Assembly (NCBI GenBank): GCA_045660045.1
Contig: JAZRDB010000012.1
Coordinates: 55,869-119,868 of the forward strand
DNA from: Alphaproteobacteria bacterium
Lineage (GTDB): Bacteria; Pseudomonadota; Alphaproteobacteria; CAAHEQ01; UBA3637
Length of the DNA: 64,000 bases
Direction of reading: 5' to 3'
This document shows positions 55,987 to 61,030 of the stretch, in pieces; the stretch's first letter is position 1, and the number at the start of each line of letters is the position of its first letter. The notes under the pieces are model-generated. The model saw only the letters and a list, made by a program, of their open reading frames with translations. It was not told the DNA's origin and did no database searches. A program made the position numbers and the translations under genes.

Positions 55987-56508
55987 ATGCAACACACAAA
56001 TGAATCTGGTCGGTCTATGTCCGAAATGTTGGCCGTTTTGGCCATCATTGGCGTTTTATCTGTTGGTACAATTGCGGGTTTTCGCCATATGATAAACAAG
56101 CAAAAAATCAATGACATTATTAACACGATCAATTTAAATAGCATTCAAATTTTAAGCAGTTTAACCCATCAAAAGTTCGATACACCCGATGCAATGGATG
56201 CATTCTTGACACAATATACAGCACAAACAGGCGGATATAACATCTCATTCAAGGCGCCTCGTGATACTGACCATGAATTTACAGGAACAGAATTCGTTGC
56301 CGAAATTACTGACCAAAAAGGTGACCGCATTAAAGGATCAATGTGCCGTCGCTTATTAACAACCATGGTCAGGGTTAACGGTGTTTCCGATATTGACTTT
56401 ACCGTCCGTAATGAACCAATGGAAGATGGAACGGTGGAAGATGTGACAATGCGATTAAGCGGCAAAGCGGTGGATTTAAACGCTTTGTGCGGAAAAGACG
56501 TTTTATAA
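55987..56508 (+). CDS. type IV pilin / pseudopilin-like protein (class III signal peptide)
   Basis: MQHTNESG/RSMSEMLAVLAIIGVLSVGTIAGF. There is a Gly at -1, a Glu at +5 and a hydrophobic helix; RBS GGGAGGAG. Confidence 0.7.
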   Translation: MQHTNESGRSMSEMLAVLAIIGVLSVGTIAGFRHMINKQKINDIINTINLNSIQILSSLTHQKFDTPDAMDAFLTQYTAQTGGYNISFKAPRDTDHEFTGTEFVAEITDQKGDRIKGSMCRRLLTTMVRVNGVSDIDFTVRNEPMEDGTVEDVTMRLSGKAVDLNALCGKDVL

Positions 56509-56549: not shown

Positions 56550-56674
56550 TGTCTCACTTTTTTAAAGTGGAAGAGTCTATCGGGTTTTGTATTCGCACCC
56601 GGTTGTTGTTTTGAAGAATACATAAAGTCCGCGGTTTTTGACCGTTGGCCAACCAAAAAAATTTAAGGTATTTT

Positions 56675-58381
56675 ATGGTAAATAAAAAACAAGAAACACC
56701 CGAAATCACAGAAGATTTTGGTGCTTTATTAGATGAATATATGGGTGCTGAAAAATCCTTGCAAGGCAAGACAGTATCCGGAACAGTGACACGCGTTGAT
56801 GATGATGAAGTAGTCGTTGATGTCGGATTGAAATCCGAAGGACGCATTCCTTTGTCTGAATTTGGCGTTCAAGCTGTGAAACCAGGCGATGTTGTAGAAG
56901 TCTTTATTGAACGTTACGAAGACCGTGAAGGCAACGCCGTTTTGTCCCGTGAAAAGGCTCGTCGTGAAGAAGCCTGGGGCGATTTAGAACAAGCTATGAC
57001 AAAGGGCGAACATGTGAACGGTACAATTTTTGGCCGTGTCAAAGGTGGCTTTACTGTTGATTTGAAAGGCGCAACTGCGTTCTTGCCAGGCAGCCAAATT
57101 GATGTCCGTCCAATTCGTGACATGACCCCATTAATGGGTGTTGAACAACCATTTGCTATTTTAAAAATGGACAAAGCCCGTGGCAATATCGTTGTGTCTC
57201 GTCGCGCTGTGTTGGAAGAAGCTCGTGCTGAACAAACTTCCGAAATCATCAAGAACTTGTCCGAAGGTCAAGTGGTCGATGGCACAGTGAAGAACGTGAC
57301 CGATTACGGTGCCTTTATTGATTTGGGTGGCGTTGATGGTTTGTTGCACGTAACAGACATGAGCTGGAAACGCATTAATAACCCATCTGAAGTTTTGTCC
57401 GTTGGTCAAACAATTAAAGTTCAGATTATTAAATTCAACCAAGAAACAGGCCGTATCTCTTTGGGTTTGAAACAAATGGAAGCCGATCCTTGGGCTGGTG
57501 TGGATACAAAATTCCACCCAGGCGACAAATTGTCCGGCAAAATCAGCAACATCACCGATTACGGTGCATTTGTTGACTTGGGCGATGGTGTCGAAGGTTT
57601 GGTCCATGTTTCTGAAATGAGCTGGACAAAGAAAAATACACATCCAAGCAAGATTGTTACATTGGGCCAAGAAGTCAATGTGATCGTTTTGGAAGTGGAT
57701 GAATCCAAGCGCCGTATTTCCTTGGGCATGAAGCAATTGCAAGAAAACCCATGGGAAAAATTCGCTAAAGAACACAAAGTCGGCGATATCATTGAAGGCG
57801 AAATCAAGAACGTAATCGAATTCGGTGTGTTCATGTCTTTAACAGAAGACTTGGATGGCATGATTCACAGTTCTGACCTTGCTTGGGACAAACCAAGTGA
57901 AGAAGCCATCAAAGATTACAAGAAGGGCATGACTGTCAAAGCCAAGATTTTGGACATTGATGTTGAAAAAGAACGTATTTCTTTGGGCATCAAGCAATTG
58001 ACAGAAGACCCAATGGCTGGCTCTATGGAAGGCTTGAAGAAAGGCGCCGTGGTGACCGCTGTTGTGTCCGCCATTGAAGAAAACGGCTTGGAAGTTGATG
58101 TGAATGGTGTGAAAGGTTACATCAAACGCACAGACTTGGCCAAAGAACGTTCCGAACAAAAAACAGAACGTTTTGCCATTGGCGAAAAAGTGGATGCCAA
58201 AGTGACGTCTGTGGACAACAAAGCCCACAAGGTCAATTTGTCCATTAAAGCCCGCGAAATCGAAGATGAAAAACGTGCTTTGGAAGAATATGGTTCCACA
58301 AGCTCGGGCGCCTCTTTGGGCGACATCTTGGGCGCGGCTTTGGAAAAGAAAGCCAAAAAGGCCAAGAAAGACGAAGAATAA
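56675..58381 (+). CDS. rpsA: 30S ribosomal protein S1
   Basis: Six S1 (OB) repeats (GTV..V..GA.VDLG..G..H.S). Start trimmed to ATG 56675. Confidence 0.95.
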   Translation: MVNKKQETPEITEDFGALLDEYMGAEKSLQGKTVSGTVTRVDDDEVVVDVGLKSEGRIPLSEFGVQAVKPGDVVEVFIERYEDREGNAVLSREKARREEAWGDLEQAMTKGEHVNGTIFGRVKGGFTVDLKGATAFLPGSQIDVRPIRDMTPLMGVEQPFAILKMDKARGNIVVSRRAVLEEARAEQTSEIIKNLSEGQVVDGTVKNVTDYGAFIDLGGVDGLLHVTDMSWKRINNPSEVLSVGQTIKVQIIKFNQETGRISLGLKQMEADPWAGVDTKFHPGDKLSGKISNITDYGAFVDLGDGVEGLVHVSEMSWTKKNTHPSKIVTLGQEVNVIVLEVDESKRRISLGMKQLQENPWEKFAKEHKVGDIIEGEIKNVIEFGVFMSLTEDLDGMIHSSDLAWDKPSEEAIKDYKKGMTVKAKILDIDVEKERISLGIKQLTEDPMAGSMEGLKKGAVVTAVVSAIEENGLEVDVNGVKGYIKRTDLAKERSEQKTERFAIGEKVDAKVTSVDNKAHKVNLSIKAREIEDEKRALEEYGSTSSGASLGDILGAALEKKAKKAKKDEE

Positions 58382-58401
58382 TTTCGTCTGGTTCTATAAA
58401 G

Positions 58402-58435
58402 AGCGGGCACCAATCGGCGCCCGCTTTATTTTTCT
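58402..58435 (+). terminator. rpsA terminator (AGCGGGCACC-AAUC-GGCGCCCGCU + U run)
   Basis: G+C-rich hairpin then UUUAUUUUU. It is nearly identical to the hairpin at 59393-59419. Confidence 0.75.
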
Positions 58436-58436
58436 C

Positions 58437-58465
58437 TTGACATTATAATTTATTTTTCCTAAACT
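58437..58465 (+). promoter_or_regulatory. promoter of the structured RNA unit (TTGACA-N17-TAAACT)
   Basis: Hexamers at 58437-58442 and 58460-58465. A TATAAT also occurs at 58444-58449. Confidence 0.5.
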
Positions 58466-58471
58466 GACATT

Positions 58472-58756
58472 GGATAGACGGAAAGCCGTTTGTCCAAAGT
58501 ACCTGAATAAGGTGCCGAAGAGCCTCGTAAGCTCAAACATAATGGGGTAGTTTGAACACCCTACCCGAAATGGCGTGTTTCCTTTTCAAAAGTAAATACC
58601 CATTTCAGCCCCATCCTTGACTTATGGTCGGGGAGCTTGTGGTGTATGTTCAGGGGTTGTGCCCTTTCGGGGGCATAACCTTAAAGGCCACAGGGATCAT
58701 TATCATTATGTTTTGATTTACGAACTCTCCGACCACCTGATTTTTCAGGTGGTTTT
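58472..58756 (+). ncRNA. unassigned ~285-nt highly structured RNA (independent sRNA, or riboswitch/attenuator-type leader of the OMP gene)
   Basis: No ORF; own promoter; at least 8 hand-drawable helices, including a nested three-helix domain at 58626-58734; ends in an intrinsic terminator. G+C-rich relative to the neighbouring spacers. Confidence 0.5.
58733..58756 (+). terminator. intrinsic terminator CCACCUGA-UUUU-UCAGGUGG-UUUU, 24 nt before the OMP start codon
   Basis: Perfect 8-bp stem plus U4. Confidence 0.7.
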
Positions 58757-58780
58757 AAATTTCTAACAAAGGAGAATAAA

Positions 58781-59377
58781 ATGAAGAAACTGTTATTGTT
58801 ATCCGCAATCGCTTTGGTTGCTACAAGTGCTTCCGCTGTGGAAGTGAAACCTTATGTTGAGGGCAAATTAAATCACAACTGGTTAAAAGCAGAATACCAA
58901 GAAGAAGGTTTCGGAAAAGAAAGTTTTAAGGACAATGTGTTCGGTGGTGCTTTGGAAGTTGGGGCGAAGATCAACCAATTTAGAATTGGTTTAGAAGGTT
59001 ATTACAATGACAAAATGGAAGATAAACTTTTGAATATTGTGCCAGTAAAAGGCGAAACAAAAGGTTTCTTCTTGAATGGCTATTGGGATATTCCATTAGG
59101 AGAACCAAAGAATGTTAAACCCTACATCGGCGCTGGTATCGGTTATTCTTGGTTGAAAGGAACCGCAGATCTAAGTGTTGTTGGATTGAGAAAAGAAAGT
59201 ATCAAGGATAAAGATTGGGGTTGGAATGTTGGATTCGGCGTTGGTTATGCCTTAAATGAAAACATTGACCTCTCATTAGGTTATAGATACGAATATCTCG
59301 GCAAAATCAAAGATTATGATAGCAAAACAAAGATTACGAATAGCAAGGTAACTTTGGGTTTAAGATATACTTTCTAA
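58781..59377 (+). CDS. small outer-membrane beta-barrel protein (OMP_b-brl / OmpA-like 8-strand class)
   Basis: Signal peptide MKKLLLLSAIALVATSASA/VE, alternating amphipathic strands, C-terminal ..LGLRYTF; RBS AAAGGAG. Confidence 0.8.
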   Translation: MKKLLLLSAIALVATSASAVEVKPYVEGKLNHNWLKAEYQEEGFGKESFKDNVFGGALEVGAKINQFRIGLEGYYNDKMEDKLLNIVPVKGETKGFFLNGYWDIPLGEPKNVKPYIGAGIGYSWLKGTADLSVVGLRKESIKDKDWGWNVGFGVGYALNENIDLSLGYRYEYLGKIKDYDSKTKITNSKVTLGLRYTF

Positions 59378-59392
59378 ATGAAACAAAAGACA

Positions 59393-59419
59393 AGCGGGTG
59401 CCAATCGGCGCCCGCTTTT
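59393..59419. terminator. bidirectional terminator (AGCGGGUGCC-AAUC-GGCGCCCGCU)
   Basis: Lies between the convergent OMP and kinase-like genes. It is a sequence twin of the rpsA terminator. Confidence 0.7.
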
Positions 59420-59438
59420 ATATAAGCGACATATGATT

Positions 59439-60500
59439 TTAAGTAACGGCAAAGTCTTTGACTAATTTTTGCAAAATCCGTTCTGTATGGGGTTTCAACC
59501 TCACGCCGACATTAAAAAATGACTGTGGATAATTTTTCAACATGCTACCTACCTTTTGGGCCTCTTTTTCACCATCCACCACTTTTCGGGCAAATGAGAC
59601 AATCGCACATTTCTTTAAAGTATGAAAATCCATCATAACTTCCTTGCCTTTTTTGTGTGCTAGTTCGTTATAACACCAACATAATTTTTCCAACATATCC
59701 TCACCAAAAATGGGAAACAATCGAGCCATACCATGATACACCAATCCATGATAATGGGTCCCCGCCAAATCAATAATACCCCACGAATGTGTTTTATCGT
59801 CATATAAAATATTACCTTGATGAAAATCACTGTAATAAGGTCCCTTCATTTTACATACATTTACATTATTTTCAATGGATTTTAATAAAGAATCATAGCA
59901 TTCAATTTCTTGACGTGAGAAATTGTACACTTTAAAAAGACATTTGATACGTTTCAGATCTTTTGCTTTTATATAGTGCTTATTTGAAATACCAGATAAG
60001 AAAGCTTTTTTATAACAAGCAAACCTATGCACACATTTCTTGTACTTCAATTTCAGGGTGTCTTTTATTGAAATAGGAGCCTCTATTTTACCAAAAATTT
60101 CTTTATCTACATTGACATCCAATGTATTTAAATCCAACATAAATGTCGCAAAATCAAAAATTGCATGTGCCTGTTGATCGGCGGACAATTTATTAAACAT
60201 CTTTTCATTAAAAGGACGACCAGAAACGTAATTTTCATGCAATTGCCACTCTCCGTTTCTGTATATCAATTCTCCAGAAGCAAGGTGCACTTTTTTTGTT
60301 TTTGGCATATAATACCCAATCGTCATACCCCTTCTTGAAAAACGCAACCATTTTTGCTCTTCCGTTTCTTTTTTAGGTAGGCAAACACATATTTTTTTCT
60401 TGTTGTTATTGGAACACAAAAAAACTTCTTGGTTGGCACCTTCACCGATTTTACGGATACAATTCACATTCTTTGGAACCTTAACATTTGCTGAAAACAT
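59439..60500 (-). CDS. protein-kinase-fold phosphotransferase (APH/choline-kinase-like)
   Basis: Gly-rich loop IGEGANQEVF, catalytic-loop-like SDFHQGNILYD and IIDLAG. The gene is very AT-rich. Confidence 0.65.
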   Translation of the reverse strand: MFSANVKVPKNVNCIRKIGEGANQEVFLCSNNNKKKICVCLPKKETEEQKWLRFSRRGMTIGYYMPKTKKVHLASGELIYRNGEWQLHENYVSGRPFNEKMFNKLSADQQAHAIFDFATFMLDLNTLDVNVDKEIFGKIEAPISIKDTLKLKYKKCVHRFACYKKAFLSGISNKHYIKAKDLKRIKCLFKVYNFSRQEIECYDSLLKSIENNVNVCKMKGPYYSDFHQGNILYDDKTHSWGIIDLAGTHYHGLVYHGMARLFPIFGEDMLEKLCWCYNELAHKKGKEVMMDFHTLKKCAIVSFARKVVDGEKEAQKVGSMLKNYPQSFFNVGVRLKPHTERILQKLVKDFAVT

Positions 60501-60583: not shown

Positions 60584-61030
60584 CTAGGAACGACGTAAAA
60601 ACTTATAAAATCTACTTGGATGACGCGATTGTTGAACAATCTTGTCAATCCAACCATTATATTCCCGACGCAACGCCACACGCGGAAAATCTGGCACATC
60701 AATTGTCACCGTCTCGCCCACTTTAATCCCTTTTAACGCCGGATCAAAACATTTTTTATTGATGAATTTATGCAAACTACGCTCAATCAAACACATATTG
60801 GAAAACTTATTTTGTCCGCCGCCAGAAAGCGGAACAATATGATGCACATCAAAACCAGATGGTGCCAGTCCACGTGACGCACGGATTAAATCAATTTCAT
60901 GACTATATGGATTCAAACGTCCCGTGCGGTAAAGCCACAACACAAACACTTTGTTCAACCGTTTGTGGTCAAATTCTTTACGCAAACGCTTTGTTACTTC
61001 CGGAGGCTGTAATGTAAATTTAACCGTCAT
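60584..61030 (-). CDS. HNH endonuclease-domain protein
   Basis: FDVHHIVPLSGGGQNKFSNMCLIERSLHKFIN (H-N-H spacing). It starts immediately after the recG stop. Confidence 0.7.
   Translation of the reverse strand: MTVKFTLQPPEVTKRLRKEFDHKRLNKVFVLWLYRTGRLNPYSHEIDLIRASRGLAPSGFDVHHIVPLSGGGQNKFSNMCLIERSLHKFINKKCFDPALKGIKVGETVTIDVPDFPRVALRREYNGWIDKIVQQSRHPSRFYKFLRRS

Follow-up and report, generated by a model that had tools for sequence, protein, structure and literature searches.

A structured RNA upstream of an outer-membrane protein gene belongs to a large alphaproteobacterial family and is a candidate two-state leader

The RNA between rpsA and the outer-membrane protein gene

In this work we have analysed a stretch of 64,000 nucleotides from an alphaproteobacterial genome (assembly GCA_045660045.1, contig JAZRDB010000012.1; the whole stretch is called the window below) and, within it, the 399-nt intergenic region that separates the 3' end of rpsA (56645–58381) from a gene for an outer-membrane protein (OMP). 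The region carries a structured RNA without an open reading frame (ORF), with a promoter and an intrinsic terminator of its own. The helices of this RNA covary in relatives, several of its pairings overlap and are mutually exclusive, and the RNA recurs in the same position before genes. We think it reasonably probable that 58472–58756 encodes a leader RNA which regulates the OMP gene in cis and has two states. The window RNA is a chromosomal member of a large family that extends over gut Alphaproteobacteria, conjugative plasmids and phages, and this family is a good candidate for a new class of riboregulator.

The + strand of 58472–58760 folds to −127.2 kcal/mol, as against −78.5 ± 5.3 kcal/mol for dinucleotide shuffles (z = −9.23), and the − strand reaches z = −5.41; the structure is thus far beyond what chance would give, and the + strand is favoured. 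No ORF of at least 50 aa was found in 58466–58780; only ORFs of 30 and 49 aa occur there, and their start codons are not conserved in relatives. The features are listed below, where H1–H5 and P1–P3 are helices, a, b and c are the strands that compete for pairing (P1 is b:c and P1alt is a:b), and MFE stands for minimum free energy; the high-GC set is described in the next section.

58402–58432, + strand: intrinsic terminator of rpsA, AGCGGGCA CCAAUCGG CGCCCGCU followed by a U-run, upstream boundary of the unit (read from the sequence)
58437–58465, + strand: sigma-70-type promoter TTGACA-N17-TAAACT (consensus scan, 10 of 12 positions; predicted start about 58472)
58472–58495, + strand: H1, the 5'-terminal hairpin, variable in sequence (MFE fold; mean z of the region in relatives −3.8)
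58499–58515, + strand: hairpin H2, GUACCU/AGGUGC with loop GAAUA (changes on both sides in 4 of 6 pairs)
58520–58534, + strand: hairpin H3, GAGC/GCUC (100% paired in the high-GC set)
58535–58544, + strand: 5' strand of the long-range helix, AAACAUAAUG (pairs with 58704–58713 in the MFE fold)
58545–58566, + strand: hairpin H4, GGGUAG/CUACCC (MFE fold; changes on both sides in 4 of 7 pairs)
58567–58606, + strand: hairpin H5, GAAAUGG/CCAUUUC, variable in length and sequence (mean z of the region in relatives −4.4)
58614–58621, + strand: segment a, the CU-rich 5' strand of P1alt, UCCUUGAC (pairs with 58627–58634 in the MFE fold and so sequesters the 5' strand of P1)
58626–58635, + strand: segment b, the 5' strand of P1, GGUCGGGGAG (identical in 29 of 32 high-GC copies)
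58636–58694, + strand: P2 (stem 58636–58643/58687–58694), enclosing a conserved internal loop (GUGUAUGUUCAG ... UUAAAGG) and hairpin P2b (about 58654–58681)
58696–58717, + strand: P3 region, stem AUCA 58696–58699/UGAU 58714–58717, whose loop holds the 3' strand of the long-range helix (CAUUAUGUUU, 58704–58713)
58725–58734, + strand: segment c, the 3' strand of P1, CUCUCCGACC, resembling an anti-Shine-Dalgarno sequence (P1 duplex −17.6 kcal/mol)
58731–58756, + strand: intrinsic terminator, GACCACCUGA UUUU UCAGGUGGUU and a U-run (consensus scan, hairpin 58731–58754), with GACC common to segment c
58770–58783, + strand: ribosome-binding site (RBS; GGAG, 58771–58774) and start codon (58781) of the OMP gene (likewise read directly from the letters)
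58781–59377, + strand: OMP gene, a 198-aa outer-membrane beta-barrel protein (OMP_b-brl/Opacity family) with a signal peptide (Pfam, E = 2.3e-21)
59393–59421, no strand assigned: terminator after the OMP gene, near-identical to that of rpsA, downstream boundary of the promoter-RNA-OMP cassette

Much of this had been described in an earlier note on this DNA. It had reported an ORF-less structured RNA with the promoter TTGACA (58437–58442)-N17-TAAACT (58460–58465) and a terminator near 58733–58756, both of which our consensus scan recovered, and it had placed H1–H5, P2 (CUUGUGG/CCACAGG), P2b and the terminator within 1 nt of where we find them, H2 being best drawn as 58499–58515. Among these, H2, H3, H4, P2, P2b and the terminator covary in 46 relatives, and the H1 and H5 regions fold better than shuffled sequences. 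The 24 nt between the U-run and the ATG do hold an RBS and no usable promoter, as it had said: the sole promoter-like match in this gap (58754–58782, 9 of 12 positions) cannot serve the OMP gene because its −10 element overlies the start codon. This arrangement supports a downstream gene that would depend on read-through. The fate of the outer stem GGUCGGGGAG/CUCUCCGACC (P1) was mixed, for it is conserved and 98.4% paired in the high-GC set but is absent from the MFE fold of the window RNA. That fold contains, not P1, two pairings which had been missed, the 10-bp long-range helix 58535–58544/58704–58713 and the P1alt hairpin 58614–58621/58627–58634. Considered as isolated duplexes, P1 has −17.6 kcal/mol and P1alt −10.5 kcal/mol.

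The family, its covariation and its genes

Relatives of the RNA were sought at several levels. Among 68 rpsA loci from GTDB genomes that formed our synteny sample, three carry the RNA (L002, L005 and L010), all of them from metagenome-assembled genomes of uncultured gut or rumen Alphaproteobacteria. L002 has both the RNA and the OMP gene. L005 has kept the RNA at similar conservation, followed by a remnant RBS and no OMP gene, with a YpsA-like gene 350 nt further on; L010, whose S1 protein is 78% identical, carries it elsewhere, equipped with a promoter and a terminator of its own, and there the next gene is about 390 nt away. A distant blastn search of PLSDB matched window positions 58614–58654 to alphaproteobacterial plasmids, and with the copy from the Afipia plasmid pOC167 as the query we obtained 300 plasmid records, 174 of them matching over at least 80% of its 251 nt, with 249 conjugative plasmids. 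Scanning metagenomes with a conserved-core pattern, in which segment b and most of segment c were fixed, gave at least 120 loci, with 55 distinct cores among the matches listed, mostly from human gut and rumen. A looser pattern that fixed segment b found 54 contigs in IMG/VR, of which the family profile confirmed 31, and several of these contigs have tail-fibre, major-head, head-closure or endolysin genes beside the element. Blastn searches of GenBank phage genomes with the window copy and with a phage-type copy gave no match. Taxonomic labels apply to the GTDB and plasmid loci. Some contigs carry at least two copies, and extra partial copies lie near full ones (L069:3526–3625, L160:521–932 and L175:1540–1950), that of L069 between a helix-turn-helix (HTH) regulator gene and an AraC gene.

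Two sets of relatives were aligned with MAFFT and evaluated by explicit pair counting and per-sequence complementarity tests: a gut set of 46 copies, all less than 80% identical to one another and aligned over their full length, and a high-GC set of 32 copies from plasmids and IMG/VR. The order of parts in the family is, from 5' to 3', promoter, H1, H2, H3 (loop GUCGAAA), the 5' strand of the long-range helix, H4, H5, segments a and b, P2 with its internal loop and P2b, the P3 region with the 3' strand of the long-range helix, segment c, terminator, a spacer of 15–30 nt, RBS and ORF. A promoter-like site matching at least 8 of 12 positions ends 6–9 nt before H1 in 40 of 47 relatives, and H3 has the counterparts GGAGCU-GUCGAAA-GCUCU in gut copies and GGGGC-GUCGAAA-CCCC in plasmid copies. 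When the fold with the long-range helix and P1alt is laid over the gut set, 93.5% of cells are paired (81.7 ± 0.4% after shuffling), 35 of 55 pairs show changes on both sides (26.3 ± 1.9) and 324 cells are compensated (105 ± 8); none of 500 shuffles reaches these values, and slid registers are 38–46% paired. The high-GC set behaves in the same way (92.4% of cells paired against 78.1% shuffled, 18 of 25 pairs compensated), and over both sets slid controls give 38–52% pairing as compared with the observed 92–94%. The conservation and covariation in relatives which the earlier note had proposed to look for were thus both found.

The most striking of the helices is the long-range one. All 9 of its aligned pairs covary in the gut set, with 4–6 Watson-Crick pair types per position, its contiguous complementarity is 8.6 nt within a copy as against 4.2 ± 1.3 nt between copies, and it is present in 32 of 32 high-GC copies with 6–12 perfect pairs and with a sequence that differs in most lineages. 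It is hypervariable in sequence, yet always complementary. P2 (7 of 8 pairs) and P2b (4 of 5) covary in the gut set, as do all five inner P2 pairs in the high-GC set; the terminator hairpin is 100% paired in 45 gut copies, 3 of its 6 pairs covarying, and the stem of P3, though conserved, gives no information on covariation in the gut set. P1alt is 98% paired over 46 copies and varies solely by transitions that preserve pairing (C/U opposite G, A/G opposite U). P1 has 4 compensated pairs in the high-GC alignment, and in the copies from Ti plasmids (pTi) and Ancylobacter the changes GC to CG, AU to GC and UA to GC are such that segment c compensates for segment b. Segment b is identical in 12 of 15 plasmid copies that were fetched by BLAST alone.

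How are these pairings connected with expression of the gene? Among gut copies, segment c and the terminator's 5' arm overlap by 2 nt, the last of the one being the first of the other; both positions invariably hold pyrimidines, capable of pairing with G1 and G2 of segment b, and they also covary with the terminator's 3' arm (CC..GG, UC..GA, CU..GG). The overlap in the window copy is 4 nt (GACC), and holding GACC in P1 weakens its terminator from −16.7 to −7.9 kcal/mol. High-GC copies have no U-tract terminator, and their segment c is complementary to the Shine-Dalgarno (SD) region of the adjacent ORF, for instance ACUCCCCG/CGGGGAGU in L215 and AACUCCCCGA/UCGGGAGAGUU in L070. The mean energy of this duplex is −13.2 kcal/mol, compared with −9.2 ± 3.4 kcal/mol for shuffled targets, and the pTi copies show the compensated pair CUAACCC/GGGUUAG. 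The arrangement seen here parallels that of known riboswitch classes, whose platforms are terminators when the host is of low GC content and SD masks when it is of high GC content. Taken together, the mutually exclusive pairings (a:b against b:c, and c with b against the terminator or the SD) support what may be a two-state expression platform. In most of the phage-borne high-GC copies segment c runs on to the SD without an intervening element. Plasmid-type copies (L069–L075 and L250–L257; for example L070:2625–2650) have a conserved hairpin GCGG-GGGCGYA-CCGC without a U-run between P1 and the RBS, which is absent from all gut-type and most phage-type copies and present in L206, L236 and L241.

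The switch which the earlier note had suggested was a different one, with ACCUGA of H2 as an antiterminator competing for UCAGGU of the terminator. This did not hold up: across the 46 copies complementarity was 5.26 nt for matched and 4.98 nt for mismatched partners, so the match is peculiar to the window copy, and H2 itself forms a stable hairpin that covaries. What is conserved is another competition, which involves the 3' strand of P1, which shares its last 2–4 nt with the terminator's 5' arm, and the CU-rich strand upstream, which sequesters the 5' strand of P1. We also considered and set aside a kissing interaction between the H4 loop (GGAUAU) and AUAUCC, which is mostly conserved and shows little covariation, and a CsrA-type GGA decoy, since the window copy lacks the GGA that most gut copies have in the H4 loop. 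Many high-GC copies (L070:2596–2604, L071 and many from IMG/VR) have ACCA directly after the 10-bp P1, like the 3' end of a tRNA, and L010 has ACCC. A tRNA- or tmRNA-like reading of stem plus ACCA was rejected: the window copy has ACCU, no G3:U70 pair and no T-loop, and ARAGORN gave no match.

The family is absent from Rfam 15, and we found no description of the motif or of a traM leader RNA in the searchable literature. A cmscan of the whole 64-kb window at gathering scores assigned no family and no tRNA to it, cmscan at E ≤ 10 on 58350–58850 and 58605–58765 returned terminator-like noise only, and ARAGORN detected no tmRNA or tRNA, so that the element, as already thought, matches no known family at Rfam thresholds; tmRNA, RNase P, signal recognition particle and 6S RNA in particular find no match in Rfam models or ARAGORN. 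An L20-leader match is spurious, covering the rpsA terminator hairpin only. The one Rfam model that gave a signal was sRNA-Xcc1 (RF02221), sRNA denoting small RNA. Its scores for the plasmid copies of Afipia and Bosea, 32.6 and 35.7 bits, lie below the gathering threshold of 53, and the sub-threshold alignments to L070 and L074 are full-length over the 3' domain; RF02221 gave no match to the window copy even at E ≤ 10 and none to gut copies at E ≤ 0.1. The P1/P2/P3 junction, the G-rich 5' strand of P1 and the CACC tail of sRNA-Xcc1 are nonetheless found, in the window as segments 58626–58738, and the P3 region corresponds to P3 of the model. The predicted transcript of about 285 nt with its conserved 5' domain differs from the size of sRNA-Xcc1, about 88 nt.

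Behind the element a same-strand ORF follows in 56 non-redundant gut copies, usually 40–60 nt after segment c, and about two thirds of these ORFs (37 of 56) have a signal peptide, a lipobox or a pilin-like N-terminus. Their Pfam families comprise autotransporters, OMP beta-barrels, TRL and Bor lipoproteins, DUF805, SNase and PLD nucleases, glycosyltransferases, epimerases, an EcoRI-type methylase, YpsA-SLOG, HTH proteins and ankyrin repeats. On phage contigs the products of these ORFs are lipoproteins or membrane proteins of small size. The element precedes traM by about 20 nt on pEHA105, pTi_CFBP2407, pTi1D1609, pTiCFBP5473, Ancylobacter pA and A. fabrum pAtl-11a, and it stands immediately 5' of traM in the five copies fetched from Ti-type and related plasmids; other plasmid copies precede small TraM-like, HTH or unknown ORFs. 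What unites the downstream genes is that they are accessory cargo of mobile elements, often connected with the envelope, and not a metabolic pathway. We note that the downstream ORFs of L079, L084, L101, L111 and L174 share a type IV pilin-like N-terminus (GRSMIEMLGVLAIVGILSV) and differ widely beyond it; they may constitute a family, restricted to these gut bacteria, of pseudopilins or surface proteins. On pTi1D1609 (L252:1–289) a ProQ/FinO-family gene lies directly upstream of the traM leader, which is not so in the other Ti plasmids inspected. ProQ/FinO proteins bind structured RNAs, and this one is a possible partner of the traM leader.

The surroundings of the window copy are also variable. 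Direct repeats at 58402–58432 and 59393–59421 (AGCGGG[CA/TG]CCAATCGGCGCCCGCTTT) bracket the promoter-RNA-OMP cassette of about 990 bp; an intra-window repeat search with blastn-short found this duplicated terminator alone, and the family profile HMM found one copy of the RNA in 64 kb. The close relative L001, whose S1 protein is 97% identical, has the same two terminator-like repeats around a gene for a Cys-rich secreted protein, and the structured RNA is absent. This gene (L001:2635–3504), which follows the shared TTGACA, encodes 289 aa with two Cys-rich end modules and internal repeats. The rpsA–OMP locus looks like a hot spot for cassette exchange. Three ORFs that adjoin it have no Pfam match: 59439–60500 (− strand, 353 aa), 55987–56508 (173 aa) and 60584–61030 (148 aa); the 353-aa gene is kept in L001 and absent from L002. 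To judge by ORF sizes and order alone, without a family library, a putative cluster of ribosomal-protein genes occupies about 20–35 kb on the − strand, and leader motifs for ribosomal proteins might be expected there, although the Rfam scan of the window gave no hit at gathering score.

A two-state leader and the alternatives

How could such an RNA work as a switch? Four segments would decide: a (58614–58621), b (58626–58635), c (58725–58734) and d, which is the terminator (58731–58754) or, in high-GC relatives, the SD region. When a pairs with b, and the long-range helix 58535–58544/58704–58713 clamps the 5' and 3' domains together, segment c would be free, the full terminator would form and transcription would stop at about 58756, leaving an RNA of about 285 nt; in high-GC copies segment c would mask the SD instead. 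This would be the OFF state. In the ON state, b would pair with c, and P1 would close a three-way junction of P1, P2 and P3 resembling sRNA-Xcc1; it would thereby take the bottom base pairs of the terminator or release the SD, and the OMP gene would be transcribed and translated. P1 and the long-range helix could coexist as a pseudoknot, and P3 and the long-range helix, which overlap without a spacer, would exclude each other. The switching itself, the assignment of P1 to the ON state and a trans factor that sets the balance are inferences. Candidates for the trigger are a small ligand at the junction, an Hfq-dependent sRNA or a protein. TraM protein is lowered in an hfq mutant of A. tumefaciens (PMC4201532), which is compatible with post-transcriptional control through the leader, and for this reason we hold an sRNA/Hfq trigger to be as likely as a small-molecule ligand. 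The view that the RNA is a riboswitch- or attenuator-like leader, which the earlier note had put forward, is supported because the order promoter-RNA-terminator-RBS-ORF recurs in dozens of diverged copies before unrelated genes, and by the mutually exclusive pairings; an independent sRNA may still arise as a by-product.

Several points weigh against this interpretation. The downstream genes have no common metabolic theme, unlike those of most metabolite riboswitches, and in L010 and L005 the next gene is 350–390 nt away. When only nested pairs are allowed, the P1 state of the window RNA lies 13.7 kcal/mol above the MFE; the two states would be about isoenergetic if the pseudoknot of P1 with the long-range helix is assumed, and our estimate depends on that assumption. 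Segment b and part of segment c were fixed by the search pattern, and the covariation of P1 rests on a few plasmid lineages. The sole described relative, sRNA-Xcc1, was reported as a trans-acting sRNA. Lastly, the start, the stop and the read-through of the transcript are predicted for every copy.

A wider version of the two-state leader, which we put forward tentatively and with less confidence than the leader itself, is that the junction with the sRNA-Xcc1 fold is the sensing core of a new and widespread class of riboswitch-like sensors, through which the cargo genes of mobile elements would respond to a signal of the host cell. These genes would be phage morons, the Ti-plasmid quorum-sensing anti-activator gene traM, integron symE and surface-protein genes of gut Alphaproteobacteria, and sRNA-Xcc1 would be the minimal, terminated version of this cis-regulator.

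Could the RNA instead act primarily in trans, with read-through as an incidental event? As an abundant sRNA of about 285 nt it would pair through segment c with the RBSs of other mRNAs or titrate a protein. Alphaproteobacterial sRNAs have anti-SD seeds, and the free CUCUCC motif here is similar to them. The RNA has its own promoter and a good terminator, some contigs carry at least two copies, the next gene in L010 is about 390 nt away, and L005 has kept the RNA though the OMP ORF is missing; moreover, Northern blots have shown sRNA-Xcc1 to be a discrete RNA of 88 nt (PMC2996969). We nevertheless consider this unlikely as the primary role. Nearly every copy is followed on the same strand by an RBS and a promoterless ORF at a short and fairly constant distance, and the high-GC copies, having no terminator, would not yield a discrete sRNA by termination. 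In those copies it is the SD of the neighbouring gene with which segment c pairs, and this pairing shows compensatory changes; two conserved and exclusive partners for segment b are needless in an sRNA that pairs by a seed. The two roles need not be opposed, as terminated riboswitch leaders can also act in trans.

It is less probable still that the element senses nothing and is a constitutive expression module for acquired 'moron' genes, in which promoter and leader stabilize the mRNA, insulate it from neighbours or Rho, or bring about processive antitermination. The cargo would fit, since accessory genes (Bor-like and TRL lipoproteins, autotransporters, nucleases, a methylase, TraM) stand downstream on phages, plasmids and variable cassettes, and in the close relative L001 another gene takes the place of the window cassette. 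The layout of HK022 put, a promoter-proximal RNA followed by a terminator, is likewise similar. However, high-GC copies have no terminator to be read through and are built around SD sequestration, and conserved exclusive pairings indicate switching rather than a static structure. The downstream units, being mostly single short genes, make processive antitermination unnecessary, and no antitermination RNA in Rfam matches.

That the element is a repeat at the DNA level, either similar to a miniature inverted-repeat transposable element or a recombination site for cassette exchange, with the RNA structure as a by-product, is barely credible: near-identical terminators do flank the promoter-RNA-OMP segment, its content differs between close relatives and the distantly related sRNA-Xcc1 lies in integron cassettes, but copies less than 80% identical keep their helices by compensatory changes, including G-U pairs that are possible on one strand only, the orientation with respect to promoter, terminator and downstream ORF does not vary, one copy occurs in the 64-kb window, no integrase or transposase is consistently adjacent, and no bounding terminal inverted repeats were noticed, although no dedicated scan was made for them.

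If the two-state leader is correct, a common and so far unannotated control element would govern accessory genes with which uncultured Alphaproteobacteria of gut and rumen shape their interaction with the host (autotransporters, OMPs, pilin-like proteins, lipoproteins), 'moron' genes of prophages, and traM, the anti-activator gating quorum-sensing control of Ti-plasmid conjugation, in a well-studied circuit. It would also offer a concrete mechanism for sRNA-Xcc1, an orphan 'virulence-linked sRNA', and a large RNA family with both low-GC (terminator) and high-GC (SD-masking) platforms would join the candidates for ligand discovery. Even if expression is constitutive, the annotation would explain hundreds of 'empty' intergenic regions of 200–300 nt on alphaproteobacterial plasmids and phages.

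Comparison with known RNAs

sRNA-Xcc1 was described as a stable 88-nt RNA of X. campestris, verified by Northern blotting (PMC2996969). In integron cassettes it precedes symE (bioRxiv 10.1101/2025.06.18.660453), in APSE phages it precedes an ORF6N gene (bioRxiv 10.1101/2020.03.17.996009), and Xylella has seven copies of it (PMC12189769). Our family shares with it the layout of the junction, a P1 5' strand GGnCGGGG with CCCCGnnC and then CACC, an AUACAA-like P2 loop and a short P3, and both lie just upstream of accessory genes on mobile elements. In our view, therefore, sRNA-Xcc1 and the 3' three-way junction of the family are distantly related. In contrast to sRNA-Xcc1, the family is three times longer and has a 5' domain of about 150 nt (H1–H5), a long-range helix into the P3 loop and a competitor of P1; the 5' domain, the clamp helix and P1alt are additions not described for sRNA-Xcc1. 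Furthermore, sRNA-Xcc1 was described as a trans-acting sRNA of gamma- and betaproteobacteria, whereas the evidence presented here points to control in cis.

There is also a resemblance to riboswitches with terminator or SD platforms. Here too a structured domain lies 5' of a gene, the 3' strand of the closing stem overlaps a terminator or an SD mask, a strand competes with P1 and the terminated form is sRNA-like. Of the properties expected of a riboswitch, we found a gene 3' on the same strand without its own promoter (with the longer gaps of L005 and L010 as exceptions), a conserved structure supported by covariation, and platform pairings that overlap the terminator or the SD. The downstream genes, heterogeneous in Pfam terms, do not point to one ligand pathway, and the associated genes share no pathway as those of riboswitches do. 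P1 is conserved in sequence here and does not covary freely, and the 5' domain and clamp helix stand upstream of the junction, in place of a simple aptamer followed by the platform.

The four-segment logic, a:b and c:d against b:c, is that of trp-type attenuators, which differ in that the leader here has no leader peptide and no conserved ORF. Leaders of the rpoS type, which are activated by sRNAs and Hfq, are similar in so far as an inhibitory SD helix could be opened by a trans-acting RNA and TraM levels depend on Hfq. Finally, HK022 put, the Bacillus EAR element and type III toxin-antitoxin systems (toxI-terminator-toxN) share with our family the succession of promoter, structured RNA, terminator and gene on mobile elements. 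There is no similarity to them in sequence or model, the high-GC copies are without terminators and tandem repeats are lacking here, and, unlike in type III systems, the genes downstream are not toxins of one family.

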